The notes under the pieces are model-generated. The model had not been told where the DNA came from. It made no database searches and saw only the letters and a program-made list of their open reading frames with translations. A DNA stretch of 63,999 nt, the filler included, from Dirinaria sp. TL-2023a (lineage: Eukaryota): the NCBI GenBank assembly GCA_051941275.1. It is 21 parts of 21 records of this genome, joined end to end, with 100 filler letters (N's around TTAATTAATTAA, not from the genome) between each part and the next. Parts side by side here need not be neighbours in the genome. Positions count along the whole stretch, not along the records: positions 18,663 to 21,651 come from JAVEBF010002144.1; 20 more parts are not named here. One strand, given 5' to 3'. The position numbers and the translations under genes are program-made. This document shows, piece after piece, positions 3,019-63,999 of the stretch (position 1 is the stretch's first letter; each line of letters begins with the position of its first letter).

Positions 3019-3118
3019 NNNNNNNNNNNNNNNNNNNNNNNNNNNNNNNNNNNNNNNNNNNNTTAATTAATTAANNNNNNNNNNNNNNNNNNNNNNNNNN
3101 NNNNNNNNNNNNNNNNNN
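3019..3118. other. Artificial contig-joining spacer (N44-TTAATTAATTAA-N44), first of 20
   Basis: Identical 100-nt linker with stops in all six frames; repeats at 6136, 9253, 12360, 15467, 18563, 21652, 24739, 27824, 30904, 33981, 37056, 40118, 43179, 46239, 49296, 52346, 55395, 58428, 61461. Contig lengths fall from about 3018 to about 2933. Confidence 0.98.
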
Positions 3119-5296: not shown

Positions 5297-7996
5297 ATCA
5301 CGAATGTAAAATCACAATTTTGCAGGAGGATCCTGCCATCGTGTAGACAATGGAACAGCTGTCACTCGCGGCGATATACTATAAAGAGATCGGACAAGCT
5401 ATCAGCTTCTGATACGTCGCTGATTGATGCACGCTGAGCGGATCATATTATCTTGTGAAAAGGCTGACTCGTATAGGAAAACAGTTTTGATTTACCTGAA
5501 CAGAGCGACGACCGAAAACGTTGATGGTCACCGAAGTCTTCCAGTGTGAACTAGTTACTGCTTTCAAAACGAAGCAAAAGACGTTTTATCCTGTTAATAA
5601 GCTGCGAAACGTGCTTAATCGCCGGATTTGAATAAATTGATTGATACACATGATGTGCTGGTTCTTGATTCGTTCTATCATCTTGCGCTCGTATCATTTT
5701 CAAAGGACTCACTATTCAGTAATCGACATCTAGCCTCAAACATGACCTAAGTTATACCACGGCATATGATGGTTCAGCCATCGCTGCAGAGCTAGCAGCA
5801 TTTACTCTCGCGGATCTACGTAGCTCATACAATTGGCAAACTAAGATACGCAGTCTGCTAATAAAGTCAAGAGTACTACACCTGTGATAGTGCACTAATC
5901 GATTGAGGATGGATATTGTGACGATTACGATTAGAATCGTATCAATGATGAAGCAATGAACTATTAACACGTTGATCTCACACTCATGATAATCATCATG
6001 AGGATAAAAAGCGCGGTCACCGACGGAAATGTGTAACATTTTCAATCGGCAAAGTGGGTTCATAATGATTTCCTGCGATTGCGTCAATTAGCCTTGAGGG
6101 CCATGACAATTTCAAAAGCTTCACTTGTTCAGGTTNNNNNNNNNNNNNNNNNNNNNNNNNNNNNNNNNNNNNNNNNNNNTTAATTAATTAANNNNNNNNN
6201 NNNNNNNNNNNNNNNNNNNNNNNNNNNNNNNNNNNAAGACGGGAAGGAGAAGCCGAGAGGGCGGTCTGATATGTTGGTGATCAGGTTCGCACTGCAAAGC
6301 TCGGTGGCTTTTGTTGTCTGTCTATTCAACATTTCGCAAAATGTGTTCTCACATTCGTACACCTAATGGACTCTGCTCATTATTAGCAGTAAACCACGAA
6401 ATCTCATCATATGACAATGGCTGAGAGGCTGCAGCCCAGTAAGGGCATCTTGATTGCTGACGACGAGAGCTTTAAACCTGATCTGGATAGGCCCGACTTA
6501 CCTCGGTAGAATTGTTCGGGTTCAACCCCTTCAGGCGAAGGTCCGAAATCAGCCCTACAGGGCTGCCAGTATGTACTCATCGTAGTTGCTTACCTTACTT
6601 AGGCGACCCAACTTCAGCTCGGCACCGTCTATCGCTAGAGAGGAGTGATCGTCTATATCTACTTTATGTTCACAGAACGCAAGATACTAGACTATTATCG
6701 AACGACACTGGCCTCAGATACCACCCTGTATTCAGGCAACTGGAAGTATTTTCGTCCCAAGATATTCATACACTGTTAAAGGCCACGTGTCAATTCTCCG
6801 TGAGATCAGTGGGTCGCTCTTCTCGTTCCCAACCATGTTCATTAAACGGTATACCCTGGACAACCAACCAGTTCATGCGCTGGATCGCCCTTACTAAGCC
6901 TCCGGATGGCATCCACATCTCTGACCGACAGAGCTGAAAGGACCGATTGAGTGGAGCAATAATATGAGTGGGCCACGGAGCTGAGGGATTGGAGTCAGCT
7001 AATAGGAAGCCTCCTTTAAGCGCGCGTGCGCACTCTCGGCGGAGCTGGAGTTGACTCAGCAGCTCTCACTCTCCTTCTAGCTACTACTAGATACCGTCAT
7101 GGTTTTTTGGCCCCAAGGTGAGTACCTGACATCTCACATCTTACCTGAGGCTGCCCAGAACGGGTTTCATTCTCTCGGGCCGCGTTTCGTGCATTATTGC
7201 ATTAGCGCGCATAAGATATTGCATGTCAATGTGTCATGCATGTCTCGTACTGAGCCTCCACGTTCACGTACATCCAACGGTTCCTTGGATGAGCACCAGA
7301 GGAAGCAGCGCCTTTTTACTTGATCATCTGGTATAACTTCTCGCCTCGCAATTATTGATCACATTGAAAGCCATTGAAAGCCACCATAAGCCAAGGCGCA
7401 GGACTTTGACATGTGTTCAGGCTGAAAGCCTCCACTTCATCCGGAGATATGAGGAGACCAGGTGGAGACGGCTGGCAGCGTAGCATCGGCCCTGGATCAA
7501 CTACTGCTACAGACACTTCCAGAACGGTCACTCTCTCGTTCAGCCGTTGTACCACGACGGGATGGAGAAGGAATCTGGAAACTGGAATCAGTAGATTTTA
7601 CGTAAAGTTCGAGTACAGTCAGCGAAGGTGTAACGTTGGCTTGGTGTTCACCAAGGCAGAAAGTGAAGGTGTCGCTCACATGGAGGTCGTAGCGGTGAAT
7701 ATCACTTACTCACTTACTCACTAAGCCCATGGCATGATGATGGCAACCCCACAGTGAAATGAAACCCCTGAAGCCCTGAACCGGAAGCCGAAAGGAGCCG
7801 GACGCCGAGAACATACTTGAATGAAACATATTTAAATGATACAGCAATCCCCAGGAAACAGGAAAGAAAAGAGATAGTAGGCAACGCCGAGCTGCAAATA
7901 CGAGCAGCTCCAGCCCAAGTCACTCACTCACTCAATCTCCCTCAATCTTCAACCACCTCACTCTTTCCATTCCTGATCCCAAACAATCACTTCAAG

Positions 7997-18562: not shown

Positions 18563-20450
18563 NNNNNNNNNNNNNNNNNNNNNNNNNNNNNNNNNNNNNN
18601 NNNNNNTTAATTAATTAANNNNNNNNNNNNNNNNNNNNNNNNNNNNNNNNNNNNNNNNNNNNGATACGGGCACTGAGATTGGATACAGCTATGGGGGTCA
18701 AAAGGCGACGGGTGAGGAAGCAGATGCTGATTAGAATCCCAAGTCGAAAGGCGCAGAGATCCTGCCTACTTGTAAGTACAATTTCGAAGCAATTGCGATG
18801 TCAATCCGCGTATCAGCGGGAGCGTCTGTCGGGCCGTTCCGTGACCGCGTAAGGTAGCGCTGGGAAGTCTCACAATGGCATGATCATGGTCGGGATACAG
18901 TTGGAAAAAACTGTGCTTGATTACGATCTGGTAATGGTTCGAATGCTGAGGCTAGGGGTGCAATATGCTCTCTGAGTGGCTGCCGGCTTGTGAAGCCTGA
19001 TCCCACGGAAGAAGCAATGACAAAAGGCAAGGGAATCGCCTTATAAACCTGCCCTTTGCCTTCTACTTCCTACCGTAAATCCGTGTTCCCATCTACATTA
19101 TGAAGTGCAAGGGGCCATCATGCTCTGAACTTCTATCGAGATTCAGCAATTGTAATCAGGCGATCCAGTGCGACTGGTATGAGAGTGGCTGGACGTTGGA
19201 GAATCAGCTAAGTTTATAGAGATTGTCTCACATATGCGAAGTTCCGGTTTGTTGATTGATCTGCAAGGCTTCCCTCCCTTTCACTCTTTGGAACGAGCGA
19301 TGTTTCACCTAAAAATTTGACTCCGGGATCGAATGGCTTTTTCGTGCGGAGTTTGATCTTTATACGATGTGGTGATTCGGATTTGGACTCTGTGGGTTGC
19401 ATCCTCTTTCTTGCCTCTGTGTTGATATCTGTCCGAGTCTTCTTGTTGACGTCTTCGCGAGTCTCGCGCGGATATCTTGTAGTCTATTTCGTTATTAGAT
19501 GTCCATACGAACAGAATGCATGGATCGATCTACATTTGCTTCCTGACGTGGCTGGATCTTTCGTCGTGTATTTCAAGGCTGTTCATCAATGCTTGCGCCC
19601 TCGCTGAGAATGTCCTCTCAGCCATGGATTCAAAGTCTCTGGGAAAAGATAACATGGCTTCGAGACCTCATTGCCTGTCGTAGCTTGGGCTATTCTTGGA
19701 CTCTTACGTGCTCGACGATAGCCTTTTCCCAGCTATGTATCCAAAGTCTGGAAATGGACAAGAAGGCTTCCGAGATCTTATCGCGCATCGAGGCAGACCC
19801 CCAGGCTTCCCCGCCGAAACTGTGAGCTTTAAAGCGGTCATTGTTTCCCCATCAGTCTACATTTAATTCCTGAGGTGCCTGGATCTTTTCGTACTATCTA
19901 ACGCTATTCTCAATGCTTGTGCGCTGGATGATAAGAATAACCTAGCCACGAACCCAGATTCTCTGTAAAGGGGCAAGAAGGATTTCGAGATCTCCCCGCT
20001 TATCGAGGCATAGGCTTTCAGGCTTTCAGGCTTTTCAACACAGTCATCGCTTCCCCGTAACACAAAGCAGCGTAACTCATTGCCCTTTGCATATCAAGAT
20101 CGTGAATAAGGTGTCGGCCGGGTGAGGGATAAAGGCTTTACAGACCTACTTCGCTCTTCGTATTGCGCCTAATCCGAGGGAATGATCCATGATCCTTGAT
20201 CTTCTGGCATGAATCGTTAGGCGCGAGCATCGTAAATTTGATCCAGTCGCATTAGTAGCACGGGGTAGTCGACATTCGAAGTGGTTGGCCGTAAGCGCTT
20301 GAGATAGGGGAGTATCCTGGATGCAGCAAGATGATGAACACCCGCGAGTACATAGCATGATTGAAGCTCCAATCGTTGCGTTTTGATCGAATATCCATCA
20401 AATATTTGTAAATCTTCCATCAAGCGTCTGCTTCCATCCGAAGCCAGAAG

Positions 20451-21651
20451 ATGACGTCCTCTTGGCACGGCCTCAAAATTTTTCTCTCCCACTCCCAGCC
20501 CACTTCAACCTCGAGCCATTGTCACGCATCTTCTTTGAGCATACCAAAGGTGTTCTTGTCGTCTCGTTATCCACAAAATCTTTTAAGCTCACTGAAAATG
20601 TCGATAATAATGTTGGACTGGCGAGAGCGGCCCCCCAAACATCAAATCATCAGCCAGATACACAGCAAGCTGCTCGAACTCGACCACGTTGGTAAAACCG
20701 TGATTGAAATTGCAGAGACGACCAACAACAAAGCGCTCGCGGTTGAGGATTATGATGGCGATAGGATGTGGGCCCGCCGAACGTGTGGATCGACGCGGAA
20801 TATCATGAACCAGGAAGCGCATTTGTGCAAGTTCGTGGCCATAGGCATTGAAGTAGGTGCAATTCCGTCCAGTTTCTGGCCAGAGATCCCATATCATAGC
20901 TGGATTCGTCCATAAGTGTACGGGGAGAATGGTTCAAGTGTCGACTGCCAGTACAATAATAATATGGAGATGATATTGTGTGATAACGTATGATCTAGAT
21001 TGCTACCATTGTCCAGGCGGAGGAGCCTAAAAAAATGCGGAAACTCCAATATCTGTTAGAGTCGAAGGAGCTCTCAGCGAAGCTGATTAAACGCCTATTT
21101 AATGACTGGGCCGTAACTCTGGGTGTTCATCCGTGGGCACTTGGGGTCCATACCCAAGACGGTGGCAACGTTTCGGTGCCGCAAGGGATCAAGATCACTT
21201 GCAATGTTGCTACAAACGTGTTCCGCAGTATGCGATGAGCCAGAAGTCTTCAGACGATGACGCTGATAGAGAATAGACGAGTCGAGGAACCACGGCCTCA
21301 CTGGTCGAGAGGTTATGGTGCTAGCGCTCATCAACTCCATATGCATCAAATTTAGACAGGGTTTCCGCCTACGGGCTGTGGTAGTCACCGAACACCGCAA
21401 TATTGACTTCACGACAGCAGAAGTCGCACAGCATATTGAGGACGTAGTCTTCGTGCAGACGGGGGGGTACCCAACACGGAACGTGAAGGAGTTTTTGAAT
21501 TTGTTGTGCAGTCATCGGATGCTGAAGAAAATTCCTTTCCTCTATTCCTCAGACCACGATCCCCATGGTCACCACATCTTCGCTGGGCTGAAGTACGGAT
21601 CTAAAGCCAGTGCCTGGTGTTCCCAAAGTCAAATATGTCCAAGGCTCGAAT
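20451..21651 (+). CDS. Divergent Spo11/topoisomerase VI-A-like protein (partial; 5' end uncertain, possibly a pseudogene)
   Basis: Introns 20853-20998 and 21228-21276 join three ORFs in frame: winged-helix segment KKMRKLQY...DWAVTLGVHPWALGV and TOPRIM segment VVVTEHR...TGGYPT...DHDPHG...LKYGSKA. Confidence 0.65.
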
Positions 21652-22176
21652 NNNNNNNNNNNNNNNNNNNNNNNNNNNNNNNNNNNNNNNNNNNNTTAAT
21701 TAATTAANNNNNNNNNNNNNNNNNNNNNNNNNNNNNNNNNNNNNNNNNNNNTATATATATATATATATAATTTTCTCAGTACACTGATCCTACCTACTTC
21801 CTTCATAAGTAAGTGCGCAAAACTCCAAGCGTTTTGACATCCCCGTTCGTTACATGTAGCTTGGGCCACTGACAATTATCAACTCTAACAGGATCTGGTA
21901 TTCCACATGAGTTGGAAAAAAAAAAACATTATCATTATTAGATCAGATATTTTAAAATCAGTACTCATATTACATGTTTCGAAAAGATCGAATACTCAGC
22001 TCTTAGTTTTATTACGAAAAATCTACTTGATATATTAGAATAAAATGTGGGTTGGATAAAATGAAAATATACTTTTTTTTTTCTTCTTTTTTTTTTTGGA
22101 TTGGATCTCTGCTGAAAGATCAATGTCGAGGTGCCCGTTGTTGATGAGGGGTATTTATTTGTACTGCATGGAATGC

Positions 22177-22208
22177 CACACACACACACACACACATACA
22201 CACACACA
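22177..22208 (+). repeat. (CA)n microsatellite
   Basis: cacacacacacacacacacatacacacacaca downstream of VPS33. Confidence 0.9.
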
Positions 22209-22447
22209 AAAAAACTACTTGAATGATGCTTGCATGCATGTAGGGGATCTACTTCTCTGAGGGAGCAAAACTTCACGGAGTAGGGAGTAGGTAGGATATG
22301 ATGCATGAAATAAATCAACTCCCGATTTTCGTTGAGCATTAAGATGTAAGATGAGAGAGAAGTTGAAAGCTGGCAGGCAGTTAGGCAGGCAGGCTGGGTT
22401 GGTTGTCGATGAAGCAAGCATAATCTTTAGACAAGTCTCATCTCGCT

Positions 22448-24738
22448 TCAACCCTTCCCAAAATCGCCCTTCTCCACCGCCGCCCCCACCATCTGATTCC
22501 CGTTCAGCACATCGGTGGTACAGATCAAGATGCGCCGCCTCTCCTCCTCCTGCTTGGCCACGAACCTTAGCGCCGCGATCTCCGTGTACGTGACCCCGCC
22601 CACGAACATCACCATCACCGTCTTCTTCTTGTTGCCCGCCCCCTGCTGGTGGCCCGTGAGCATATGCCGCGCCTTGACCGCCTGCTCCGAGGAGGCGGAG
22701 TCTGCTTTCTGCGCTTTGGTGAAGGTGTCGCCTTTGACGTTTTTGAGGACGTCTTCGAAGCCCGACCAGCCGTGCGCCGCCGAGGAAGGGTTGGGCGGCG
22801 GCGCAAGGGAGGAGAGGTATGGTTTTTGCAGCACGCACTGCACGAGCCGGATCGAGAGCGGGGCGTACATGCTGTACACGTACGCGATGTCGTCCGGCTC
22901 CTGCTCGTTCACTTCGTCGAGGATCAGGCGCAGCGGGCGGCGGATGGCCGCGTAGTTGGTTCCAGCGGCTGATGGCGTGGCGGCGGCGGTGCCGAGGAAC
23001 GCGTTACCCGTTCGGGATTGCAGGAGTTGCATCTTTTCGAGGGCGGATAGGGTCAGGAGGTGTTGGTAGCCGTAGGCGTGCAGGATCTGACGCTTGAAAT
23101 TGTCGAGGTCCTTTTGGCGCAGGCCTCCGGAGACGCATGATTCAAGGCATAGGAGCCGAAGGACGGTGAGGAGAGGCGCGTCTCGCGAGATGAGTTCCTC
23201 TATAGCGTCGTGCTGGGAGGAGGGGTCTGCTCCTGCAACCAAGTTCTGCTGGACTTCTAGCACGCGGCTGAAGATGTCGGAGTGCAAGGTTTGCTTTTCG
23301 ATGTCTTGGGCAAGGCCGACTTGAATCTTGAGGCTCTGTTGCTCGGATTGGTATGCTGGAAGTTTGTTGACAAAGTCACGTAGTTCAGAGGTGCTTTTGG
23401 CAACATGCCGGCTTTCATAGTCGCTTTGCAACCGTTTTGCGAATTTGTTGAGAAGCCGACTTCCTGTGGCGAAATTCGTGTCGCGGAGCTGAGCATACAA
23501 TTTATCGGAAGAGTCGAGCTGGATCTTACGCTTGCGGCTTTGCTGTGCATCAGGCGTCGTGTTCTGCTGGGACCCAGGCACAGGACCGACGATGGACGTG
23601 TTAATGTCCGCTTGGTTATACTGGATCCCGAAGAGCTCGTCTATCAGCCCCTCGTATGTCAACTGTGTGAGCAGTGGTGTGGAAAGGTCGACGTCTCGAT
23701 CAATGATGATTAAGCTCTCAATAGAGGCGCTTGGGATCATTCCTAACTGCGAGCGGCTGACATCGGTCGCCTCATCTGCAGAGGCCTCCGATCGCATGCG
23801 GAACAGCAAATCCATAAGACGACGAGCATGGTCGCCTTTGCCGATTATACGTGGAAAGAGCCCATACTTTTGCTGAATTTGCATAAGGCCTTGAGCTGCC
23901 AGGAATATCGATGTCGGATCCTTTCGCTATATGATTTTAGAAAGGTACTTCTGTCCTAAAAGATGACAAAGACATACTAGGAGTAAATCTCCGAAGGAGT
24001 CCTCAAGCGCCAAGGACAAGACATCCTGCTCAAGGGGAATGAAGTACAGAGATAGCGCCTCCACGCTGACATCGCCAAGGACTCCTGCTTCTTCGAGAAT
24101 CTTGTTGCAAACCAAGGTCCGCCGAGGGACCCAGATTACAGAGAACTCATGTTCGTTGCTACGATTCTTCTGCAGGCGCTTGATCTGGTCTACGTGAGGT
24201 GATGTCAGCAGGAAATGATGGCGTTGAGACTATAAATTCAAAGAGTAGTACGCTATAGAGCATGCTGTATCCAGTGATTGGATGATCTAGGGATCAAGAC
24301 TGACTCAGTAGAGTAGATGATTTTCTACGTAATCTACTTTTATGTCCCATTTAATGTGTCTGGACAAGATTGAATGCCCCAATCTTTGCAATGCAGGAAG
24401 AAGGTGAAGAAAATTGTTCAAGCTCAAAAATAAATGACAGCCATTGATCGGAAATAATCCTACGTACATACCAGCAACTGCTATGGCTTGACTGGCTTTC
24501 TCTCCACGAGCAAGGAAAATGATATTCTTCTGAGACGAGTCGACATTGTCGTTCTCCAGAAAGAATACTTTGTCAACGCCATATTCTTGGAGAGTGGAGA
24601 ACTTGATGAAGAGGCCGATTGGACCAGCCAATGATTTCTCAATCACTAGATTCTTCTTTCCACGGACCTGCATGGTTTAGCCTTGCGTGGACGGTGAATT
24701 CAGATAATGGAGTTTGCCTTACATACGCCGTGTAACAG
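22448..24738 (-). CDS. VPS33: Vacuolar protein sorting Sec1/Munc18-family protein Vps33 (5'-truncated, multi-exon)
   Basis: VRGKKNLVIEKSLAGPIGLFIKFSTLQEYGVDK; IIIDRDVD...LLTQLTYEGLIDE; DIAYVYSMYAPLSIRLVQ; VMFVGGVTYTEIAALRF. Confidence 0.95.
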
Positions 24739-25239: not shown

Positions 25240-27823
25240 TTATTCGCCGTCTTTTTCCATCTCTTGCGAGAAGTAGCGCGTCATCTTATCAGCTGATAAG
25301 CTGTTAGCTACTCTCTTCGTAACAGGGTGAGAAGCACTCACCCTTCGATTTCGCAGCGGTGGTCTTGGTCGGACGACCTTTTCGGCGCTGGCTCAGTGTC
25401 ACACGTGTTTGTCTCTGAGACTGACTTTGAACCGATCTGGACCCGTAAGACTGGGAGTGGGTCCCTTGACCATGGGAGCGGGCTTGAGAATCAGGGATTG
25501 TTGGGCCTAGATTCTGACTCTTGGGGCGGAGGTCGTTCCCCTTCGAGCTCTCCGAGCCGGAAGCCAAGCCTGCACTATCCGCCTTACGCTTCATCGACCG
25601 AGCACTCTTAAGTATCCCCTTAGTTGGCATAGAGACTTTACTTTGCTGAGAATCACGCTTTGTAGCTACGTCTTCTGCCACGACTAAGTGTCGAGGGCTG
25701 ATGGTCGTGGGTTGGGTGAATTCTTGCGAACCTCGGGGTGTGTGCGGCGTGACCTGCGTTTCTGTATTTGCCGGCTCAGGTAAGTACTCGAGATCAGTCT
25801 CTAAGAAATCCGAAGGTAGATGACCTCTTAATGATGACGTATAACTGCTGTAGTGTTTCGTCGTCACAAGGCTGTCTTCGACGAAATTTACGGTCGGCTT
25901 CAGGGTCTGTGATCCTAGATTTGGCGTTGGCGGGAAAAGGTCCTCAAAATCACTTGAAGTACCAGAGCGACCCTCATTATTTTCATCTGGAGCAAAGCTA
26001 AGACGACCGCGTGAGGGAGTCGCCGTGTGTTGCTCTTGGTTAGAAGTGAGAGGTTCTGGTACGCTTCGAAATTGGGAGTCCTTGACTACAGTATGAGTCG
26101 ATTTATGCTCAAAAGTTTCAGGCTTTCGCTGCGACTGGGAATCGTCGGCCTCGTGACGAGAAGACTGTAGACAACTTCGATCTGCCTTACGCCTATCTTT
26201 CGGTGGAAAACAATTCTCGTGTTGCTGCGCCTCAACGACTGTGTCTGAGCACACTTGAGCGGCGTTTCGGCTTCGCAAAATATCCAATGCTTTACGAGCT
26301 TCATTGGCTTTGCGGGTCTGTATTGCTAAACTATCTTCTGCAGCTTGTCGAGCTTCGCTAGCTTGGCGGGCTTCTGCAACTTTCTCCAAATTCTCGGTTT
26401 CAAGGTTCCTGATCTTAGCTTGCGTGGCTTCCAGTTCGTAGATACACTTTCTAAACGCCAGTTGAACTTTCGATAATTCAGTATCACTTTCCTCAATGCG
26501 AACTTCCAAACCGGCTACTGCAGCTCTCAGACTTTCAGCCTCTGCTGTGACCTCGGCGAGCGACTGCACACGATCTTGAGCTGAAACTTCGGCTTCACTC
26601 TTGCCCTTTTGAAGCTCAACGAGCACGCCGAGTCGTGCCTGTGCCAATTCAACTGCATCCGACTTTTCCTTTCGCAATCTTTCCAACTCTTGTGCTTCTT
26701 TCGCAATGTGACCTTCGAGGGAAGCTAATTTGTCGTTCAATTTGTGAACCTCTGCACGATGTTCAGCTTCGTAAGTACTTTGATCAAGCTGAGCCTTAGT
26801 AAGTAGCTCAGCTCTCTTGCCTTCTTGATCCGCAGTAAGACGCTCGATGAAGGCAGCATGCGCCTCTGCTACGCGGGTTGCTCTAGCGCGCTCTTCTCCC
26901 AATTGACTATTTACCACTTCCAGTTGTAGCTGGACGTGGGAGTAATCTTCAAACTTGGCTTGTAGCAGCTTCGATGCCTCGGTATTTGTTTCATGCAATA
27001 CCTGTATCTCTTGTTGGATGGCTTTGTTCTGCATGTCTATATCTCGAAGCCGATTCAGGGTCTCTGGGGAGTCACGCGGCTGCTTGCGGAGAGTGACGGC
27101 CTCCATCTCCAGAGCATTGACTTTATGCTTTAGGGAAGCTTCCATATCTTGCGCGGTGGCTATTCTTTGGCGAGCTTCCAGCAACGCAGCGTCGGATGTC
27201 TTAACTCTTTCCTCCAGGACAGCCTTCGCTATGCAATGCTCCGTGATTTGGTCACTCAAGGATTGCTCCGATTTGATATTTTCACGCAATAGTTGGAAGT
27301 CCTTCTTGACCTTATTGACCAAGTCTTGAGGATCTATGTTGAGGGAATGGATCTCGTTTCGACAAGATTGCACGGCGTCGGTAATGCTTACCTTGATTAG
27401 CGTTGTGTGATTGGAATTCGATGCACAGGAAAACCTACCCGTCGGCGGATGCCCTGATAGATGTCTCAAGAAGCCGAATATCTTCAGTAGTAACATTTCC
27501 CGAGTCCCGTAGCATGTTGACCGTAGCGGTACATTCGCACATGGTTGCTTTAAGCTCCTCACAGGAGCCGGACTCCTCATTTTGTCGTAGAGCTTCCAGC
27601 TTGCTGAAAATGCTGTTCAGCTTGGCAATGAAATGGTTACCTTGAGCTGCGGATGCTTCTGCGGAGTTCTGATGACCGATGCCAATCTTCTCAATTTCAG
27701 CCAGTATCAGATCATTTCTGTCACGCTCGTGCGAAAGTGAGCGCGCGCTCTCTTGCATCTGGGCCTGCTGAGTTGTAATTGTGTGACGCTGCACATGTAG
27801 CTCATGCTGGGCTTCTTTCAATG
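25240..27823 (-). CDS. Long coiled-coil protein with disordered S/T/Q-rich basic tail (5'-truncated)
   Basis: About 450 aa of heptad-rich E/Q/K/L sequence; probable introns near 27387-27438 and 25294-25341; last exon ...DKMTRYFSQEMEKDGE*. Confidence 0.7.
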
Positions 27824-37055: not shown

Positions 37056-37367
37056 NNNNNNNNNNNNNNNNNNNNNNNNNNNNNNNNNNNNNNNNNNNNT
37101 TAATTAATTAANNNNNNNNNNNNNNNNNNNNNNNNNNNNNNNNNNNNNNNNNNNNGTCTTCTTCGTCTGGAAAGCGCATTTCCTACCTCAGGTTTTGTCG
37201 GTGTGTCTGCGCTGCTCGTTGACCCATAGCCCAGCCTTGCTGTCAGCCCATGTCTTACATCTTCCAAAAGCAAGTAGGTCGTGACTCCTTATTCTCATAA
37301 ATTTATCTCCTATACACTTCTCCATCGTACACCTTGAAAAAGTTGGAATATACTTCAATACTCTAGC

Positions 37368-39336
37368 ATGCTGTCTAAATTTGTTAACTCAAGATTGACC
37401 GGCGCAATGTACTTACTAGCGCTTCTCCATCTTTTCAGCATTCCTGTCCTTGCTAGGCTCGGCGCTAGCACACAGTGCTGTAATCTGGCCTTACAGAACT
37501 CTGCCTATGTCGACAAAAGCATACCGCAGAGCGAGTACCGATGCGATCAAGTGTATAGTCCACATCTATCCCCAGCTCCAGCACTATCAGTCTCCACCAA
37601 ATGGTGCCTGGATCATTGTGGAGGATATCATTTGTTTTCCCCCAACGAAACTGCCGCTTGGGCAAACCCACTAGCACAGTATATCCTTCCAGCTGTCGTT
37701 TTCAGTATGACCATACCTCGCCGCTTGGCCTTCGAACCCCCAAGATGGTTTTTCGACTTCAGTCCCCATCACGCAAACGGCCTAATTAAGGCCATGTTTT
37801 CTTTGTGCATAGCGGGCTTGGTAGTGACGCTTGATACTGCCATGTGGATATGCACGATCATGACTGCTTCAGGCCCGTTTCTGTTCAGCGGCCTCGTTGA
37901 GGCTGTTTTGGACTATCGGATCATCAAAAACCTTGTTCACAGCCATACGCCGCGCGGCAAGGATCGTCCGGTAGGCTTGAGCAGAAACGCGCGTGTAGAA
38001 TTGTTGACTGCAGTTCTTGCCGGTAACCTGGCTGTCAAAGGCGTGTGGGCTGATCCCCAGAAGGAGTTGAGGAGGGCCTTGGACATCCGCCTACAGCCAG
38101 AGGAAGTGGAAGTACGTTTGCGAGCGATGTTGGCTTGCCAGTACCCTTTCGGGGCTGCGGTAGGCGGCCCAATACTTTTCTACTTAGGCTCATTCGCGTA
38201 TTGCATTGGCACCCTACGGACCACCAAAGGCGACGAGGATACGGCGTTGGGCCTTGCATTCGGCATTTGGTGGATGAACATTGTGCACGCCGCGGCGATA
38301 AGCGGTCTACTGCTAGCCAGCAACAACCCGAGCACAGCGGCAGCGATTGTAGGACGTTACCGAAAGAAGATGGACTTGCAGGATCGACTGGACCTGGCGA
38401 ATGAATCTCTCGAGTTGGAAGATAGGATACAAGCCCGCGTGGAAGCGTGGTCAAGGCTCTCATTAACCTACAAAGCCCGCTATGAACCAGCCTGGATGTG
38501 GAATAGAGGCAAGAGTAAGGTTTTTTGGCTTCAGAGGACTGCAGCCTGGCAGCAGCCCTGGTTTCGTGAAAGGATTGAAATGACAGCCTCAGGCTGGTTG
38601 TTTCTTACTGTGGTTGCTTACTTCTTGGTCTTGCTCCCGTGCAGCCTTGCCATCTGGATCAACTATAGTACTCCTCCAGTTGGCCCAGGATGTCGATCCA
38701 TGACCATTATTGCATATGGCTGTTCTCAATTCACATTTGTTGTTCTCTCGGCATGGAGTCATTTCAAGGCTTCCCAAACGAAGGACTATTGGGAACGACA
38801 CAGATGGCTTGCCCGCTTAAGACAAAAATGGATAGGGATCTTGATCAGTGTTGTCTTCCTACTTCCAGCCTGGATCACTGCTGTCTTCACCACCTTCGCC
38901 GGCACGCTGATGCAAATCAGTGGAATCTACCAGAACTGTTACTGTGAGTCTACTGGGTTCTGGTCCTTCCCTGAAGGCTCAACAGTCACGTTATCTACCG
39001 ATAGCGAGTATGAGAGACACTCTAGCCAATATTGGAACCAAGCAGGTTACGCCGCTCTGTTCTTCCTTGCCGGTGTAAGTGAATTTTGGAATTTCGAGTT
39101 AATTATGTTGGGCTACTTTCCAGCCTTGAGACTGCCATGAGCATCATATGCTTTGACTAAAAGTCCCACACTCAGTTCGGCAAATTTAGTTGTTGATGCT
39201 GATTCAACTGCAGGTCACGTATCTAGGGTGGTGGGGGCAACGCTACCTACGCGAGAAATTCATTGAGCGAGTGAGAGATTTGGTTGACCCCCAGCATCTC
39301 CGAACATCGCATACATACAAGCTCGGACCTGTGTGA
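37368..39336 (+). CDS. Hypothetical multi-pass membrane protein with Cys-rich extracellular N-terminus; join(37368..39073,39214..39336)
   Basis: Long ORF with signal peptide and many TM helices; GTAAGT donor at 39074 and GCTGAT..CAG acceptor at 39213 continue the frame as VTYLGWWGQRYLR. Confidence 0.75.
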
Positions 39337-47408: not shown

Positions 47409-48876
47409 TTGTCTTCCTTTCGAATTGCCGCACGGTTCGAAAGGCATTCGAGAGCGGACTCCTCGAATCCAGGCAATCTGGATTTTGACGCCAAAGTTCC
47501 GATTCCATTTAGCGTCTTCCCCTCCTCCTACAGGAACGAAGACTCCACCGAAACCACCCGCGTCAAGGTAGAAGGCAAAGCCAACCTTCCCCCATCTTCG
47601 CGCGTCGGACGGGAAGGTCACGAATCTCAGTACTCTTCCTTCTCCGCTTCTCTGCCGCACCGGCGAGACCGTACTCGATACGACGAGGAAGAGGTCAAGG
47701 TCTACGAGGAAGATCGTACCCGCCGTCCACGTCGCGAGGAAGAGATCCGAGTCTACGAGGAAGATCGTACCCGCCGTCCACGTCGCGAAGAAGAGATCCG
47801 AGTGCACGAGGACAGCTACCGTGTTCACGAGGACACCCACCGTCGAGACCGCTTCCCAGAAGTCGAGCTTTCCCGAGAGCGGTGAGTAGCCAATCGCTGA
47901 TCTCATACGTAAACACCACCACATCATGAGCAATTGCTCCTCTACAACATCTGTGACGCCCTTTTTGGAGAGCATGAATGACTGACATCTATCTTCGCTT
48001 AGCTACCAAGAGCCAGGCTATCGACGCTCCACCGACACGAAAGTCGAGATCGAGGCTCCTCGCCGTGAAGAAGAAATCGACATCACCGAACGCGATTATC
48101 GGCGACGCGTCCAGCCAACCTACGACGTCGAGTACGAGCGCCGCAGCAACTATCCTCGTGAAGAACGAGAAGTGAAAGTTGAAACCGAAACCGAAACCAA
48201 AACCACTGTTGATCCACCCTCGAAAATGGGCTACTATGACGATGAAGGCCGCTACCACTCCTTCCGTCACGGGCTAGAGAAGGCGGCCGACCGTGTCTTC
48301 CACCCATTCCACCCGCATGGTCATCGTGTTGAGCGGGAGGAAGTAATCATCGATGAAGAAGACCGCGGCCCAACTCGCATCCGCGATGGTGTGCGTGAGA
48401 GTGTCCGCTATATCGAGCGGGGTGGAGGACCTCATACCATCACCATCCCTTGCCACCACATCCGCATCGGCGACCTTTTGGTTCTCCAAGGCCGTCCCTG
48501 CCAGGTTATCCGCATCACCACTTCGGCTCAGACCGGCCAACACCGCTATCTCGGCGTTGACCTCTTCACCAAGCAACTCCACGAAGAGTCCAGTTTCGTG
48601 TCGAACCCGTCTCCTTCGGTCATCGTTCAGAACATGCTCGGCCCCGTCTTCAAGCAGTACCGTGTCCTTGATATCCGCGACGATGGCCGTGTTGTCGCCA
48701 TGACCGAAACCGGAGACGTCAAGCAAGGACTCCCGGTCATTGATCAAGGTGGACTGTGGTCGAGGCTCAACGAGTCTTTCGCCAATGGTCGCGGGAGCGT
48801 GCGGGTATTGGTCATTAATGATGGAGGTCGTGAGCTCGCTGTGGACTACAAAGTCATCCACGGCTCAAGACTCTGA
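47409..48876 (+). CDS. HEX1: Woronin body major protein Hex1; core from ATG 48226, with in-frame R/E-rich extension join(~47409..47881,48003..48876)
   Basis: MGYYDDEG; TITIPCHHIRIGDLLVLQGRPCQVIRI; eIF5A-like fold; C-terminal PTS1 SRL; upstream LDFDAKVPIPFSVFPSSYR motif as in long HexA forms. Confidence 0.93.
47685..47810 (+). repeat. 51-nt coding tandem repeat (EEEIRVYEEDRTRRPRR, about 2.5 copies)
   Basis: gtctacgaggaagatcgtacccgccgtccacgtcgcga occurs twice, 51 nt apart. Confidence 0.9.
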
Positions 48877-52445: not shown

Positions 52446-55216
52446 TCCGATCTTTGGACAACCAAGATAAGCATCAACCACAACAGCATCCGCGATTACA
52501 TTCGGTCAACGAGTAATCCTACAATAGACATAAGTCCCAATGATGCCCATAAGCACATTGCTCTTACCTGTTTGCGCACCCTCTCCAACAAACTGCCACT
52601 GGCGGATGGGATCCCACTCCCGAACCAGAAACGGTTGCAAGAGTATGCCGCATCGAACTATCTCTTTCATGTCGGGCAGCTTGAGCCTTCTAGAATGTCT
52701 CAGATAGACATTGAAACGGTTGCAGACCTGCTCGTAGATACTCTCCACAATAGAGAGTCATTAGCAAGAGTCATCGAAGCCAGGGACCAGAGTGATGTAT
52801 TCCTAGCAACATATTTCTCAAGCGAAATCCAATTGAACATACAGCAGTGGATTGCAAGGGCTTGGACACAAGAAGTGATTCCAGCAGAAATGAATCCGCC
52901 AGCGTTGTCCATGGATTCGTTATTGGCGCCGATGGCTAATACGATAGCAGAGCTCTGGCTGCAAGAGACTCCTTCAAAACTGGGCAGACTATATGTCAAT
53001 TTTTATATTGCGTTTCTCCACGCATATCAGTGTATGCGGGATGTAAGTCATCACTCTTTTGTTTCTGCTTTATCTAGACAACAAATTCAGCATATGCCGT
53101 TCGCTTCATGATAGGATACTGTGCAGGATCCTTCCAAATATGCTTTGGACCCGTTCGGCTTGAACTTGCGGCTAAACCCCAGCAATATGAGCATGTGCTG
53201 TAGAAGCCTTTGCTATACTGACCCTTCAGTGGCGGGACGCTTGATGTTTGCCATTCTCGAGCCTTCTATGCTAACCGGTCTCGTTAGACTCAAGCAATAA
53301 ACGTGAAAGGAGGTGAGAAAATACCCAAAATTATATCCGTATTCGACGTCGACAGGTTCCGTCATGAAGAAATATACCTTGTGGCACTACGCACAGAACT
53401 TCCGCGGAATTCGCAGTGGCATAGCGCCGTTGGTCTTACACTCAGCTGGAACAATTATGACTCTGAGGCTGCTGGTTTGCTCAGCAAAGCGATAGAGTTA
53501 GATCATAATAACTCGGCTGCTCACTATGGTTTGTGTAACTCCTTGTGCTGTTTGCGTGACTACGTCAAATCCATTGAGATGGGTATTGCATTTCTAGCTT
53601 TAGAGCCGATCGAGACGCCCATGACCAACAGCTGTTGGTATTGGATGGAGTTTGCCGCTCAACGACTCGACATCAATGACAGACCGATTCTGGAACTGGC
53701 ACGGAACAAGCTAGGGGCACACACAAAATCCGCGCGAGGCATATCATTCAGCCTCAAAGCATTATGGAGTCAAGATCGCTTCGCCGACATTTTGGCTTTT
53801 GTCGGTGAACTTCGAGAACAAGAGTACAGCCAGCCCAATCATAATCGTTTGTATCAACTATTGCCAGACTTACCGCATAATATCTTCCATTACATTGCAT
53901 TATCAGCAGCGAAGGCTCGTCAGAAACGACAGGTATTGGAAATTATTGATGAGTTGGTCCAATTTGCGGAAAGCGCAAATGATTTCCGCAGAAAGCGTAT
54001 TGCCAAGTACATCCAGGCGCTGATACAATTCAGCGCTGATCGAATGTCGCAAGAGGGATTGACATTATTTGAGGAACTTCGATCTGATCCAGAAAGCGGT
54101 GGTAGGAACATTTCCGGCTTCAGCTTTTTATCCTCGATTAACGAATATTTGGGCTCCCTCTACTTCGAAAAGGCCATGGAGGCAAGAAGGAGTGGCGCAA
54201 ACTCATGGCTTTGGGTTGAGAAATTGGAGGAGACACAAATCAATCCTAGTCCTTCTCTCGCTCGCCAACGCGGTCGAACCACGGAAGCGCCGACCAAAAG
54301 CTCAGTGGATCTGAAATTGGCGCTCTGGTATCGTTTAGAAGGGGAGAACGAGCTTTGTAAGAGGTTGTTGAAACCAATCTTCCAGCAAGCGATCCATATT
54401 CTACGGGATGATAACGTTCACAACGATGCGACAGGATATCGTATTCTCGCGGCTGTTCTTTTTCGAGCAGGCAATACTGAGCAAGCTATAGCTGCATTTA
54501 TACCATTGCTTTTGCCATTCTCTAGGCAACAGTCGCGTAACAGAAATCTAGGAGATGAAGCAGTACCATATTTCACCAGTTCAAACCACGGCAGCTTGGG
54601 ACCAGACCGAATGAAGCAGGCTGCTACAGGAGTAAAAAGCTTGGAAGAGGATCTAAGGCCTCTACACATTGACCAGCGGGAAATCCCGCACGGAGAATCA
54701 AATCAGCACAGTACGAAAGAAGCTTCGGAAGACGACCTGTCGCGCAGTGCCACTGAAAAGACTTTCAGTGACGGACTGCCACCTGTATTGCAAATTGATA
54801 CGGATTACTCGACAGTGGTATGCGCTGCAGGATGCACACGTCGGATCATTCATGAACTATGGGTCTGCGAATACTGTGAACATGATTGGCCACAACTAAT
54901 GTGTGGGGAATGCCTACAAGGTCTCAAAACTGGCCGATTCACTATCTATGGTCGGCTATGCGAACGGTATCATCCCTATCATAGAGTCTATCCGATCGAC
55001 GAACAGTTGAAAGATAGAGCAACGAAGAATGTCCAAGGGAGAACCTTACCTCGAGAAGAGTGGTTGAGGGAATTGGAGGACAATTGGATGTTCCCGTCTT
55101 CAAGTGGTCGTGAATACAGCAATCTGAACGACTCCACCCAAGAAGCCAGCGCTGTGGTAAGTTCTAAAGATGAAGGCGAAGACGAACGCGAAGATGAGAA
55201 GAACGGTAACAAGTGA
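52446..55216 (+). CDS. C-terminal part of an NLR-like protein: TPR-like helical repeats plus ZZ-like zinc finger
   Basis: LQEYAASNYLFH post-NACHT-like helix; TPR-like LSKAIELDHNNSAAHYGL; CAAGC...VCEYCE...MCGECL...CERYHPY; intron from about 53043. Confidence 0.62.
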
Positions 55217-59129: not shown

Positions 59130-60728
59130 CAACTGCCTCACGGAGATTCTCTTCGAGCAGGCCATCGAACGAGCAACGTCCCTCGACGAGCATCTAGAGC
59201 GAACCGGAAATGTCGTTGGGCCATTCCACGGGCTCCCGATCTCTCTCAAGGACTGCTTCGTGACTCCTCCTCATCCGTCATCAATCGGTATGGCACGCTA
59301 CGCCAACGAGCCAACGACACCAGAGCAAGAGAGTCTGCTACCACAGATTCTGAGAGAGCTGGGCGCAGTCTTCTACTGCAAGACCAACACGCCGGTTGCT
59401 ATGGTAAGTTGAAATGTAGCTGTGGCTCTTTCCGGACGTCGGCCATATTTACGCTATGCACAGATGATGATGGAGACCAATAACAACGTCTGGGGCGAAA
59501 CGAGAAGCCCAATCCACACAGGTACATCGGCTGGTGGTTCTTCGGGCGGAGAAGCCGCTCTTTTGGCTATGAAAGGCTCGCCTCTAGGTGTCGGGAGTGA
59601 TATTGCAGGTTCAATCCGCATCCCCTCCGCATGGACCCATTTGTATGGCCTAAGACCCTCTGCGGGCAGATTTCCGACCTGGAATATACGTACGGGAATC
59701 CCAGGCCAGGAATATGTCCTGGCAACAAATGGACCAATGTCAAGACATTGGGAAAGCTTACAGCTTTATTGCTCTGCTATGTTATCAGAGGGAAGTAAAG
59801 TATGGCATTTGGATCCCAAGTGCCTACCGATGCCATGGCGTAAGAATGTCATACAGCCACCCAACCGGAAATTAAGACTGGGAATTATGGGCAACCATGA
59901 TTTTTCTGTGACCTGCCATCCACCGGTAGAGCGAGCTCTCGAGGAGACGAAGAGAGCGCTGATGGATGCAGGTCATGAAGTTTTTGAGTGGTGAGTACAT
60001 CAGGAGAATTTTCCAGTATTGGGAAGTCTAGACATATGGCTGTGTTAGGGTTCCAAACGATCATCCAAAGCTTGCGGAAGCACTTATGACGGCGTTTCAA
60101 ACATTTGGTGGCTCAGTGGTCGCGGACGCACTAAGTATTACCGGTGAACCTTTCTTCAATTCTATGAAAGGCTATGAAAAAGCTTCGAAGGAGGGAGAGA
60201 GTATACTAGGGCCCTCCGCGTTCAGAGAAATGAACTTAAGGCGAAACAAGCTGCAAAAAGATTACCTTGATCGATGGCAAGCCACAGGAACCCAGGGAAA
60301 GAAGCCCATGGATGGGCTAGTAATGCCGGTGACGCCTTGGGCGGCTGCTAGGTTGAGGGTAACGGAGGAATTGTCATATGTCGGATATACTGGCGTCTTC
60401 AATATTCTGGGTAAGTCGGTACTGAATACCTAATGTCGTCTGGCGCAAAGGCCGACGAGCTAGCAGATAAGAGGTTTCCCTTTGCTTACGGTAGTCAGAT
60501 CTTCCTAGCTGCACCTTCCCGGCCACCTTCGCGGACAGGAACCTCGACCGAGCGCGCGAGGACTCGCAGTGGAATGCCTTGAACCCCTTTGATGCCAAGA
60601 TCCAAGCCGACTATGACCCAGTATTCTACCATGGGGCGCCGGTCTCGCTTCAGCTTGTTGGCCAACGTTTAGAAGAAGAGAAAGTCCTGGAAATGGTCAG
60701 TGTCGTCTCCTCGATACTCAGAAGGTAG
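59130..60728 (+). CDS. Amidase-signature family (acetamidase-like) enzyme; 5' exon(s) not found
   Basis: TNCLTE...HGLPISLKD; KTNTP; GGSSGGEAALL...GSDIAGSIRIP (Ser-Ser-Lys triad); GAPVSLQLVGQRLEEEKVL. Confidence 0.88.
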
Positions 60729-61460: not shown

Positions 61461-61560
61461 NNNNNNNNNNNNNNNNNNNNNNNNNNNNNNNNNNNNNNNN
61501 NNNNTTAATTAATTAANNNNNNNNNNNNNNNNNNNNNNNNNNNNNNNNNNNNNNNNNNNN

Positions 61561-62107: not shown

Positions 62108-63499
62108 CGTGATTGTTGGAACTCTGACGATGTCCGTTTCTATCTACAGAAATTGGAAATGGGTTGTAACGCTGTACAAACATTGGCATCAGTACAGAGT
62201 ACACAAGTAGGACGCACAGATTGAGGAGCTACATACAATGGAAGTGATCGAAGATTGATCTCAGTGGTTGGTATGGAGCCGGTGCGATAGGTGGAAGGAG
62301 AGAAGGAGGAAAAGGAGGAGGAAAAGGAGGAGGAAAAGGAGGGGGAGAAGGAGATATAAGTATCCGGCACCCGAGACCAAAGCAGTGTTCACGAGTGAAG
62401 GTGGCGATTCAATTCTCTCAACATCTCCACCACCCGGGCAAAGTAAGGTCAATTAAAGGACCTCCACCGAAAGAAATGAGTCATGGGCACATGCATCGCT
62501 CCGATTTTCCTTCATCGCATGATCAACCGATTTCCCATCGTTGCACCACCTCAACCATCCCTTGAATCTCCAACTCAACGCGGATATCCAGATCCTAGGA
62601 GATCAACCGAGAGATCTTGATGTCAGTTTTTGCATGGATCTTGGTTCCCCGGAAAATCTCTAGAACACTTCTTGCCATTTCCTCCCATGCTCAGAGTACT
62701 ATCGTCTGCTAGAAGATCGATCCCTGGGGATCTTGGCTTCCCAGACTGCAACCCAGAGGCTCCGGCGTCATTGACCACATTAGAAGAGCCTGTGGAGCCA
62801 TATGTCCGTCGTTGCACTCGCTCTCAACGACAGAATGTCAACGACAGAATGTCAACGACAGAGTGTCTTAAGAAGTGATCCACAAAACTGCAGCCCACCA
62901 ACAACGGTGTTACAAAGATCTGATCAGAGGGTAAGGTAGCTCCGAGCATTGCCCGTACTTTGCAGTTCTCAGCAGCGCTCTCTACGGACTCGGACCTGAT
63001 TTGAACACCGCTCCGTGCCTATGGTGGAGCCCTGATGGATGACGAGATAAGGTACTTTAGATACTGGACCATAAATGTTAGATCGGCCCGATAGCTCGCG
63101 GCTCGGCGATTGGAGGAGGCAAAAATCAACGCGGAAAATTTGGCTGAGCTCATTCTGGTCTAGCGCCTCAGGGTGTAGAATTTGGACTTGAGCGAAGATC
63201 TTTACACATCCTGAGATGCTACAGCAAGCGTAACATTCATACTCTCCGTCCTGATCTGATCTCCAGCCAAGACATATTCATCTTGATATTTCCATTTTGC
63301 TGATCTCGCCAACGCAGCGTTGGGTGGATCTACAGCAGGTTGCGAACTTATCATACACTGCTTGGCACTTACGTTTTATGGTATCACCAGCTCGTTTGAA
63401 GGAAGAAAGCACACCCGCTGCTTCCAAAGGTAGCTCTCAATTTATCCCTCGCGATTCCCAAAGGTATCCACTAGGCTTATCCAGTTCGGTATTCGGAGG

Positions 63500-63999
63500 A
63501 TGAGCGTCCCGAGGATGACCCAGTTGTACAACGGCGCCTTCGTCAACATCATCCTCAAAGCAGATCAAACTACTGGCAAACTCACTCAAGGTCGCATTGC
63601 CAATTTTTTGACCCGAGGTGATCATCCGCGGGGCATCAAAGTCCGACTCACGGATGGACGAATAGGCCGAGTGCAATCTCTTGCTCCGTTGTCTGGTAGT
63701 ACAACAGGCACATCGGCCGGATTTTCGGAAGAGGCTTCAACTACGTCAAGTCAAAACAGTTATCAGCCGAGTCCGCGAGAAGGAGGTCGTTGGGGAATGG
63801 CTCAAGATATGCGCTACGATGGCTACGATCCTGATTCGAGAACTGAGTCGCCTAGTCTAGCAGATTACATCAAGCCGCAAAAGCAAAAACGTTCCAAAAA
63901 GCCGCCTGCGGCTGTAGGGGACAGCGACAGAGCTGAAGATCGGTCTCAGCAAGAAGTATTAGAGGCGGAGTTCCCAAAGGTTGACAATGCTCTGATCGC
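63500..63999 (+). CDS. YwbE/DUF2196-family protein with possible C-terminal CUE-like segment (runs off window)
   Basis: Not in the ORF track because no stop lies in the window: MSVPRMTQLYNGAFVNIILKADQTTGKLTQGRIANFLTRGDHPRGIKVRLTDGRIGRVQ...EAEFPKVDNALI. Confidence 0.85.
   Translation, partial: MSVPRMTQLYNGAFVNIILKADQTTGKLTQGRIANFLTRGDHPRGIKVRLTDGRIGRVQSLAPLSGSTTGTSAGFSEEASTTSSQNSYQPSPREGGRWGMAQDMRYDGYDPDSRTESPSLADYIKPQKQKRSKKPPAAVGDSDRAEDRSQQEVLEAEFPKVDNALI

Follow-up and report, generated by a model that had tools for sequence, protein, structure and literature searches.

Meiotic recombination is universally started by Spo11, which cuts DNA for this purpose. The question addressed here is what kind of enzyme is encoded by a Spo11-like gene found in a 63,999-base stretch of DNA from Dirinaria sp. 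TL-2023a (hereafter the window), where it lies in the seventh piece (18663-21651, 2989 bases) and runs into the end of that piece. The original prediction described it as a highly divergent Spo11/Top6A-like gene with the catalytic Tyr, the Toprim Glu and the DxD motif kept, and this description is borne out both by a match to the Pfam family PF21180 (TOP6A-Spo11_Toprim) and by the profile of its relatives presented below. According to two papers, fungi, or opisthokonts as a whole, are said to have one SPO11 (PMC4071758, PMC9665070). Our analysis indicates that the span seen here is probably the first two thirds of a filamentous-ascomycete gene belonging to a distinct, fast-evolving Top6A/Spo11-like family, whose likeliest role is a lineage-specific DNA-breaking function beside Spo11.

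The gene in Dirinaria and its relatives

After the removal in silico of two GT-AG introns, the gene reads through 286 codons with zero stops; it is a real, intact-looking gene that is truncated by the contig end. All of its parts lie on the + strand, and the peptides quoted when it was first noticed are all present in the frames of this strand, both introns having standard splice signals. The span first given to it was 20451..21651, and there is indeed an in-frame ATG at 20451, but the 49 further residues that would result from this start are unmatched in relatives, and homology to these begins at the ATG at 20598 (MSIIMLDW...), which is the likely start. Likewise, position 21651 is the end of the assembly piece and not of the gene, about the last third of the protein being missing; full-length relatives measure 390-520 residues. 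As for the in-frame TGAs that had been reported upstream, one is present at 20358, but the nearest in-frame stop is a TAA at 20409.

Exon 1 (20598..20852) has 85 codons when counted from the likely start; it covers the N-terminal region, including the L-x-W-R motif of the family, and is aligned with the family profile from 20601 on (profile positions 6-93, 46.7 bits). It is followed by intron 1 (20853..20998, 146 nucleotides, GTAGGT...TAG, phase 0), in which stops are met on read-through and which is flanked by the abutting profile positions 93 and 94. The 5Y-CAP (winged-helix) part is encoded by exon 2 (20999..21227; profile positions 94-171, 84.7 bits), including the Arg-x-x-x-Tyr motif and the family motif WAVTLGVHPWALGV; the codon at 21050-21052 specifies the Tyr that, in alignments with Top6A and Spo11, falls on their catalytic Tyr. 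Intron 2 (21228..21276, 49 nucleotides, GTATGC...(CTGAT)...TAG, phase 1) contains CTGAT as a branch-like site, and BLASTP alignments of the spliced product to two relatives, P0016 and the Sarea protein P0012, are continuous across its junction. Exon 3 (21277..21651; profile positions 184-301, 162.6 bits), which is ended by the end of the piece, encodes the Toprim domain with its Glu at 21390-21392 (VVVTEHRN), a TGGYP motif, and the two Asp residues of DxD at 21552-21554 and 21558-21560 (SDHDPHG). Since the family profile matches the three exons in order, both splice junctions are independently supported. The search with hidden Markov models that had been proposed as a check gave a divided result, as exon 3 matches PF21180 (35.8 bits, E 1.1e-8; cut-off 24.1), but none of the three exons in the window has a match to Pfam TP6A_N. 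Searches of the whole window found neither a second family copy nor a canonical Spo11 in its other 20 pieces.

Relatives were collected by a word-based search with exon 3, which yielded one Gyalolechia protein; from this, seven more were obtained, and the eight were made into a profile that was searched against 1.84 billion cluster representatives (50% identity clusters). The search returned 592 matches at E<=1e-3, 167 at <=1e-10 and 52 at <=1e-30, so that the family, as found by the profile, exceeds 150 clusters (50% identity); the family counts rest on the best 150 of the 592 matches, many of which are fragments. The weaker end of these 150 includes canonical Spo11, for example P0104, in which TP6A_N is present and the Toprim model is matched at 122.9 bits. 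Among the matches listed, the spliced window protein is closest to P0016 (43% over residues 32-286); with Sarea P0012 it aligns end to end (35% over residues 3-285, the BLASTP alignment beginning at residue 3). Its nearest relatives also include P0023/P0155, P0014 and P0052. A scan of prokaryote genomes for the family's motif patterns, which is a weak test, gave 51 pattern matches and no relative.

Exact-sequence look-up of 30 proteins, together with the eight initial ones, gave 22 named proteins from 20 species, all of which are Pezizomycotina, comprising lichen fungi, black yeasts and their relatives. The named genera include the Teloschistaceae lichens Gyalolechia, Seirophora, Variospora, Teloschistes, Pyrenodesmia and Caloplaca, as well as Bacidia, Ramalina, Pyrenula, Capronia, Lithohypha, Phaeomoniella, Sarea and Cirrosporium. 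Lineage look-ups for six species gave Lecanoromycetes, Eurotiomycetes (Chaetothyriomycetidae), Sareomycetes and Xylobotryomycetes. These groups lie within Pezizomycotina, to which we take the other named genera to belong as well. Named members of the family are thus restricted to Pezizomycotina (Lecanoromycetes, Chaetothyriomycetidae, Sareomycetes and Xylobotryomycetes). Two species out of the 20, namely Gyalolechia sp. 2 and Pyrenula ochraceoflavens, have two family copies each. In the source databases the members are annotated as 'hypothetical', save for the Phaeomoniella protein ('putative meiosis-specific topoisomerase spo11') and an automatic TOPRIM-domain name in UniRef. Two members stand out in their form. 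P0015 from Teloschistes flavicans (815 residues) is longer at its C terminus by ~350 residues, among them a stretch rich in Cys and His and low-complexity sequence rich in Lys and Glu; it may be a gene-model fusion. P0008 is an uninterrupted family open reading frame (ORF) of 368 residues that nearly fills a 1182-base Logan contig; the window gene and the metagenome locus L003 (see below) have introns, and P0008 could be a copy without introns or else a transcript after splicing, in which case it would hint at expression.

Active site, fold and phylogenetic position

To count residues at the active site, the listed family proteins were aligned to the family profile, and only members with a residue at the column in question were considered. 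The catalytic Tyr is kept in 76 of 79 members and the Arg four residues before it in 73 of 79, the Toprim Glu in 116 of 117, and the first and second Asp of DxD in 103 and 104 of 106, respectively. Residues peculiar to the family are similarly constant: the His after the Toprim Glu is found in 109/117, and the His and Pro of an H-P motif in the CAP domain in 99/101 and 95/101. The window copy keeps every one of these residues, its Arg/Tyr region reading R-K-L-Q-Y. The average column identity among members is ~21%, and near-invariant catalytic residues amid such divergence form the pattern expected from purifying selection on catalysis. The E-H, T-G-G-Y-P and Q-Y variants, which had been pointed out as unlike canonical fungal Spo11, do differ from it, but they are common to the whole family and, being its signatures, are not marks of decay. 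Besides, in yeast Spo11 the nucleophile is the second of the two aromatic residues alone, so that Q-Y is unremarkable.

One defining motif of the wider enzyme group is altered. The T2BI box, (R/K)xExxA/S, contains a Glu that, in apo dimers of Top6A, caps the catalytic Tyr and touches both this Tyr and the Arg; mutation of the Glu in yeast Spo11 leads to the formation of fewer breaks (PMC7671362). This Glu is found in 0 of the 57 family members with a residue at the aligned column; the aligned motif of the family is K-F-x-L-x-x-L, with the Lys in 37/57. The window copy stops short of this region.

The domain and structure comparisons place the family in the neighborhood of Top6A and Spo11. PF21180 is above its cut-off in all 19 family members scanned and the TP6A_N cut-off is reached by none of them (P0018 scores 16.9 bits against 26), while TP6A_N (PF04406) is carried by 39 of the 43 rows of canonical Spo11 matches. 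Against sequences of the PDB, the best match of the family profile among solved structures is Top6A of M. jannaschii (1d3y, E 1.5e-7), with an alignment that spans from before the catalytic Tyr through Toprim. With hhalign, the family and eight canonical Spo11 sequences are related at a probability of 99.7 (E 3e-27) over 270 columns, which extend to where the Toprim domain ends at its C terminus. P0012 was modelled with AlphaFold on the basis of a 27-member alignment, and the model is a confident one, with a predicted local distance difference score (pLDDT) of 88.3 and a predicted template modelling score (pTM) of 0.85. Its best structural match is M. mazei Top6A (9o0g_A; Foldseek E 3.5e-12, VIA Z 28.3, root-mean-square deviation 3.2), with 338 of 359 residues aligned to model residues 17-435, followed by yeast Spo11 (Z 21.2, 305 residues). 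The first aligned residue of the model, 17, corresponds to Top6A residue 10, and the neighbors of the family in the ESM Atlas are Top6A/Spo11 clusters only. The modelled fold is thus that of a complete Top6A/Spo11 core, with N-terminal segment, 5Y-CAP and Toprim.

For the phylogeny, a maximum likelihood tree was computed by quick search (LG+C20+F+G4, 371 columns) from 59 rows: the window protein, 27 of 156 listed family proteins selected by length, 21 of 43 canonical Spo11 and 10 of 80 archaeal Top6A loci. The 28 family rows form one clade with a Shimodaira-Hasegawa-like approximate likelihood ratio support (SH-aLRT) of 100 and a stem of 2.31 changes per site. A separate clade (99) is formed by canonical fungal Spo11, with Pezizomycotina nested within it (99), and a third (100) by the archaeal Top6A rows. 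Canonical Spo11 sequences of Eurotiomycetes, Dothideomycetes and Sordariomycetes form a tight clade away from the family, which has no supported attachment point among eukaryotic Spo11 and does not group with SPO11-2. Within the family, the sequences of Teloschistaceae fall in at least three subclades, which points to old duplications. The family is distinct; as to its source, the phylogenetic results are compatible both with a duplication of fungal Spo11 and with an older origin.

Compared with canonical eukaryotic Spo11 (the SPO11-1 type, including fungal Spo11/Rec12), the family shares the two-domain core and the order of the motifs, namely Arg-x-x-x-Tyr in 5Y-CAP, Toprim Glu, G-Y-P, DxDxxG and K-Y-G-S. 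It differs from canonical Spo11 in its very long stem and separate clade, in having no match to TP6A_N at the Pfam cut-off, in the lack of the T2BI Glu, in E-H-R instead of E-K-D, in T-x-G-Y-P instead of G/A-K-G-Y-P-D, and in a V-H-P motif in the CAP domain. In addition, the family has ~80 extra residues as insertions, as the aligned span of the model is wider than its 338 aligned positions, and some genomes have more than one copy. Archaeal Top6A is the closest match in both sequence and structure among solved proteins, including an apparent counterpart of the N-terminal segment that contacts Top6B, whereas the family is eukaryotic, has spliceosomal introns and lacks the T2BI Glu. We know of no Top6B-like partner for the family. 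A precedent for several intact Spo11-type genes in one genome is provided by the SPO11-1/SPO11-2 pairs of plants and protists, with at least two catalytically intact genes per genome (PMC9665070, PMC12203943). Unlike these pairs, which are ancient, have ordinary motifs and match TP6A_N, the family is far more divergent and is found in some ascomycete classes only.

Stand-alone proteins with a Top6A-like CAP and Toprim fold are also known as Mini-A and as Wadjet JetD/MksG, and both identities were considered and rejected for the family. Weak matches to Pfam JetD_C or DUF2399 occur in the window exon and in 10 of the 19 members scanned, but the score of the window exon on JetD_C (16.5 bits) is under the cut-off of 22, and the model is a much weaker structural match to these nucleases (Z 10.4 for JetD, 10.9 for the C. 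glutamicum nuclease 8b7f) than to Top6A; moreover, the family keeps the catalytic Tyr. The T2BI signature of Mini-A, given as xWELDAL (PMC7671362), is absent from the family, whose aligned motif has no Glu. Mini-A and JetD/MksG are prokaryotic or viral, whereas the family gene has spliceosomal introns and its named relatives are fungal only.

Proposed function and alternative explanations

Judging from the conserved residues and the model, the family protein would cleave DNA by type-IIB chemistry. Two protomers would assemble on one duplex, and each Tyr, placed beside the Mg2+ site of the partner, would attack one strand, the Mg2+ being held by the Glu/DxD pocket; the product would be a double-strand break with 5'-phosphotyrosyl, protein-linked ends. 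Such Top6A/Spo11 chemistry is the likeliest because the 5Y-CAP and Toprim core is complete and Arg, Tyr, Glu and DxD are near-invariant, and DNA breakage rather than strand passage is expected, as in Spo11, because no GHKL ATPase is fused to the protein. The missing T2BI Glu suggests a changed dimer interface or a changed control, for example through a different partner, and a partner is possible because the model appears to contain the N-terminal segment through which the B subunit is bound in topo VI. Most likely, the family breaks DNA in a lineage-specific and dispensable capacity, next to the canonical Spo11 of meiosis. A more specific version, which we put forward tentatively and hold to be somewhat doubtful, is that the family may be an extra, hitherto unrecognised clade of catalytically competent Spo11/Top6A-like enzymes that exists beside a single SPO11, undergoes birth and death, has lost the T2BI Glu and maybe makes programmed or conflict-driven double-strand breaks that lie outside canonical meiosis. 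Possible roles of such a clade would be those of a second recombination initiator, of a heterodimer partner of Spo11, or of a nuclease in self/non-self recognition or genome defence.

Several points weigh against this assignment. Coexistence with canonical SPO11, in the Dirinaria genome as in the 20 named species, is a presumption, as are the activity, the expression and any partner of the family protein. The last third of the window copy lies beyond the piece, so that its integrity and its T2BI region are unseen, and the T2BI result comes from sequence alignments and not from a dimer model. The tree was built from a selection of rows, and the position of the family in it is unreliable because the stem is long. 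Furthermore, an approximately unbiased (AU) test does not reject a grouping of the family with canonical Pezizomycotina Spo11, be it as a sister group or nested (difference in log-likelihood 11.9, p 0.169). This bears on the suggestion, made at the outset, that the gene is not the canonical SPO11 ortholog: the separate clade and the two copies in two genomes speak for it indirectly, whereas the AU test is compatible with the alternative. Finally, a pseudogenised relative among metagenome loci, described below, indicates that not every family copy is under constraint.

It seems quite unlikely that the gene is the sole, true meiotic SPO11 of the organism and has merely evolved very fast in these lineages. 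Such an explanation would agree with the source annotation of the Phaeomoniella member, with the AU test and with the fact that canonical SPO11 is not shown in any family-bearing genome. It is at odds with the two deeply diverged copies in each of two named genomes and the spread of Teloschistaceae over at least three subclades, as well as with the tight clustering elsewhere of canonical Spo11 from three classes of Pezizomycotina. The TP6A_N cut-off, which canonical sequences reach and family members do not, and the uniform lack of the T2BI Glu count against it too. A lichen study reports spo11, which may be of the canonical or of the family type, among nine meiosis-toolkit genes in Lepraria and Stereocaulon (PMC11515122). 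As improbable, or slightly more so, is the view that the gene is a decaying or catalytically dead paralog whose retention, if any, would serve a non-enzymatic role; we regard it as very unlikely. It draws on a broken relative, on the family-wide loss of a Glu whose mutation lowers the number of breaks made by yeast Spo11 (PMC7671362), and on the unseen 3' third of the window copy. The window copy is nevertheless stop-free over its 286 codons with intact splice signals, and the catalytic residues are nearly invariant among members that have diverged widely. The earlier idea that this copy is a degenerating paralog thus finds no stop or frameshift to rest on, although one metagenomic relative is broken.

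That relative comes from a search with an alignment of four sequences, which gave four metagenome loci; three of them, L002-L004, are one locus found three times at 99.8% identity, so that the evidence on flanking genes comes from effectively one relative. In L003 (9962-10885), an in-frame TAG lies between profile positions 194 and 197, and near profile position 306-308 the frame changes without intervening DNA; the L002-L004 relative is probably a pseudogene. The neighbors of the family gene at this locus are a DUF7730/2EXR gene and a glycosyltransferase, and no transposase or recombinase is found among them. The multi-copy state, the long branches and the pseudogene fit gene birth and death, a pattern that would agree with a role that is dispensable or related to conflict and is not proof of it.

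The same pattern, in a patchy, multi-copy and fast-evolving family, is what could be expected if a mobile or selfish element, be it a transposon, a Starship with its cargo, a homing or killer system or the like, carried the gene or were served by it. Two further observations would suit this explanation: the prokaryotic stand-alone relatives of the A subunit (Mini-A) occur in viruses and mobile elements (PMC7671362), and the Capronia locus tag A1O1_00005 suggests, from the tag alone, a scaffold end. We nonetheless consider it unlikely. No inverted repeats are found in piece 18663-21651, there is no second copy in the window, and the indices of repeat-induced point mutation (RIP) for the piece (TpA/ApT 0.59, (CpA+TpG)/(ApC+GpT) 1.37) are not RIP-like by the usual thresholds. 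Neither the L002-L004 neighbors nor the small size of the piece hints at an element, as other ~3-kb pieces carry housekeeping genes, and no literature was found that joins Spo11, Starship and cargo. The suggestion of a mobile-element-borne or selfish enzyme is therefore not sustained by the window copy, for which the test is weak because the context amounts to just 3 kb. Upstream of the gene, 18663-20597 contains no ORF of more than 115 residues and no transposase-like ORF. A degenerate two-copy direct repeat with a period of ~325 nucleotides, whose matched blocks are 80-84% identical, lies in this non-coding DNA (19524..20010, + strand) and may be promoter-region DNA.

With the lineage-specific enzyme beside Spo11 as the preferred explanation, the family appears to be an undescribed and sometimes multi-copy branch of a well-known enzyme family in lichen-forming and related ascomycetes. 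No description of a second fungal Spo11-like family was found in the literature, the supplements of PMC9665070 that name two-paralog taxa being outside the search and possibly bearing on novelty. The lichen-related Spo11 literature examined does not describe the family, the words fungi, fungal and Ascomycota are absent from PMC11302465, and the section on Spo11 paralogs in a 2025 review deals with plants alone (PMC12203943). If real, a second fungal family that is diverged and has its active site intact would be a natural experiment in the re-use of a Top6A-type break-maker, and its loss of the T2BI Glu would allow the regulatory role proposed for that motif to be addressed directly. Surveys of the meiosis toolkit that infer sex in lichen fungi or black yeasts would also be affected, because a Toprim-only match of the family can be mistaken for SPO11, as one source annotation already has it.

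Surrounding pieces of the window

In the window, 21 unrelated pieces of the assembly follow one another in descending size, each 2439-3018 bases long. The gene's piece ends at an artificial, unstranded joint (21652..21751) consisting of the linker N44-TTAATTAATTAA-N44, with unrelated DNA beyond it. There are 20 such joints (e.g. at 3019-3118, 6136-6235 and 61461-61560), and features cannot be read across them. Other pieces contain a Sec1-family gene (331 bits; 22451-23926, - strand), eIF-5A (47986-48873, +), an amidase gene (59413-59991, +) and a DUF2196 gene (63434-63997, +), of which the first three are likewise cut by piece ends. Since these other ~3-kb pieces carry ordinary or housekeeping genes, the assembly is just a fragmented one, and small size does not mark a piece as a repeat. 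Three long open frames, at 25307-27616 (-), 53288-55213 (+) and 37338-39137 (+), with 770, 642 and 600 residues, have no Pfam match at E<=1e-5. Just past the joint that follows the piece of the Spo11-like gene, in promoter-side DNA of the piece with the Sec1-family gene, a (CA)n microsatellite is found at 22170-22215, together with long T runs at 22065-22095.

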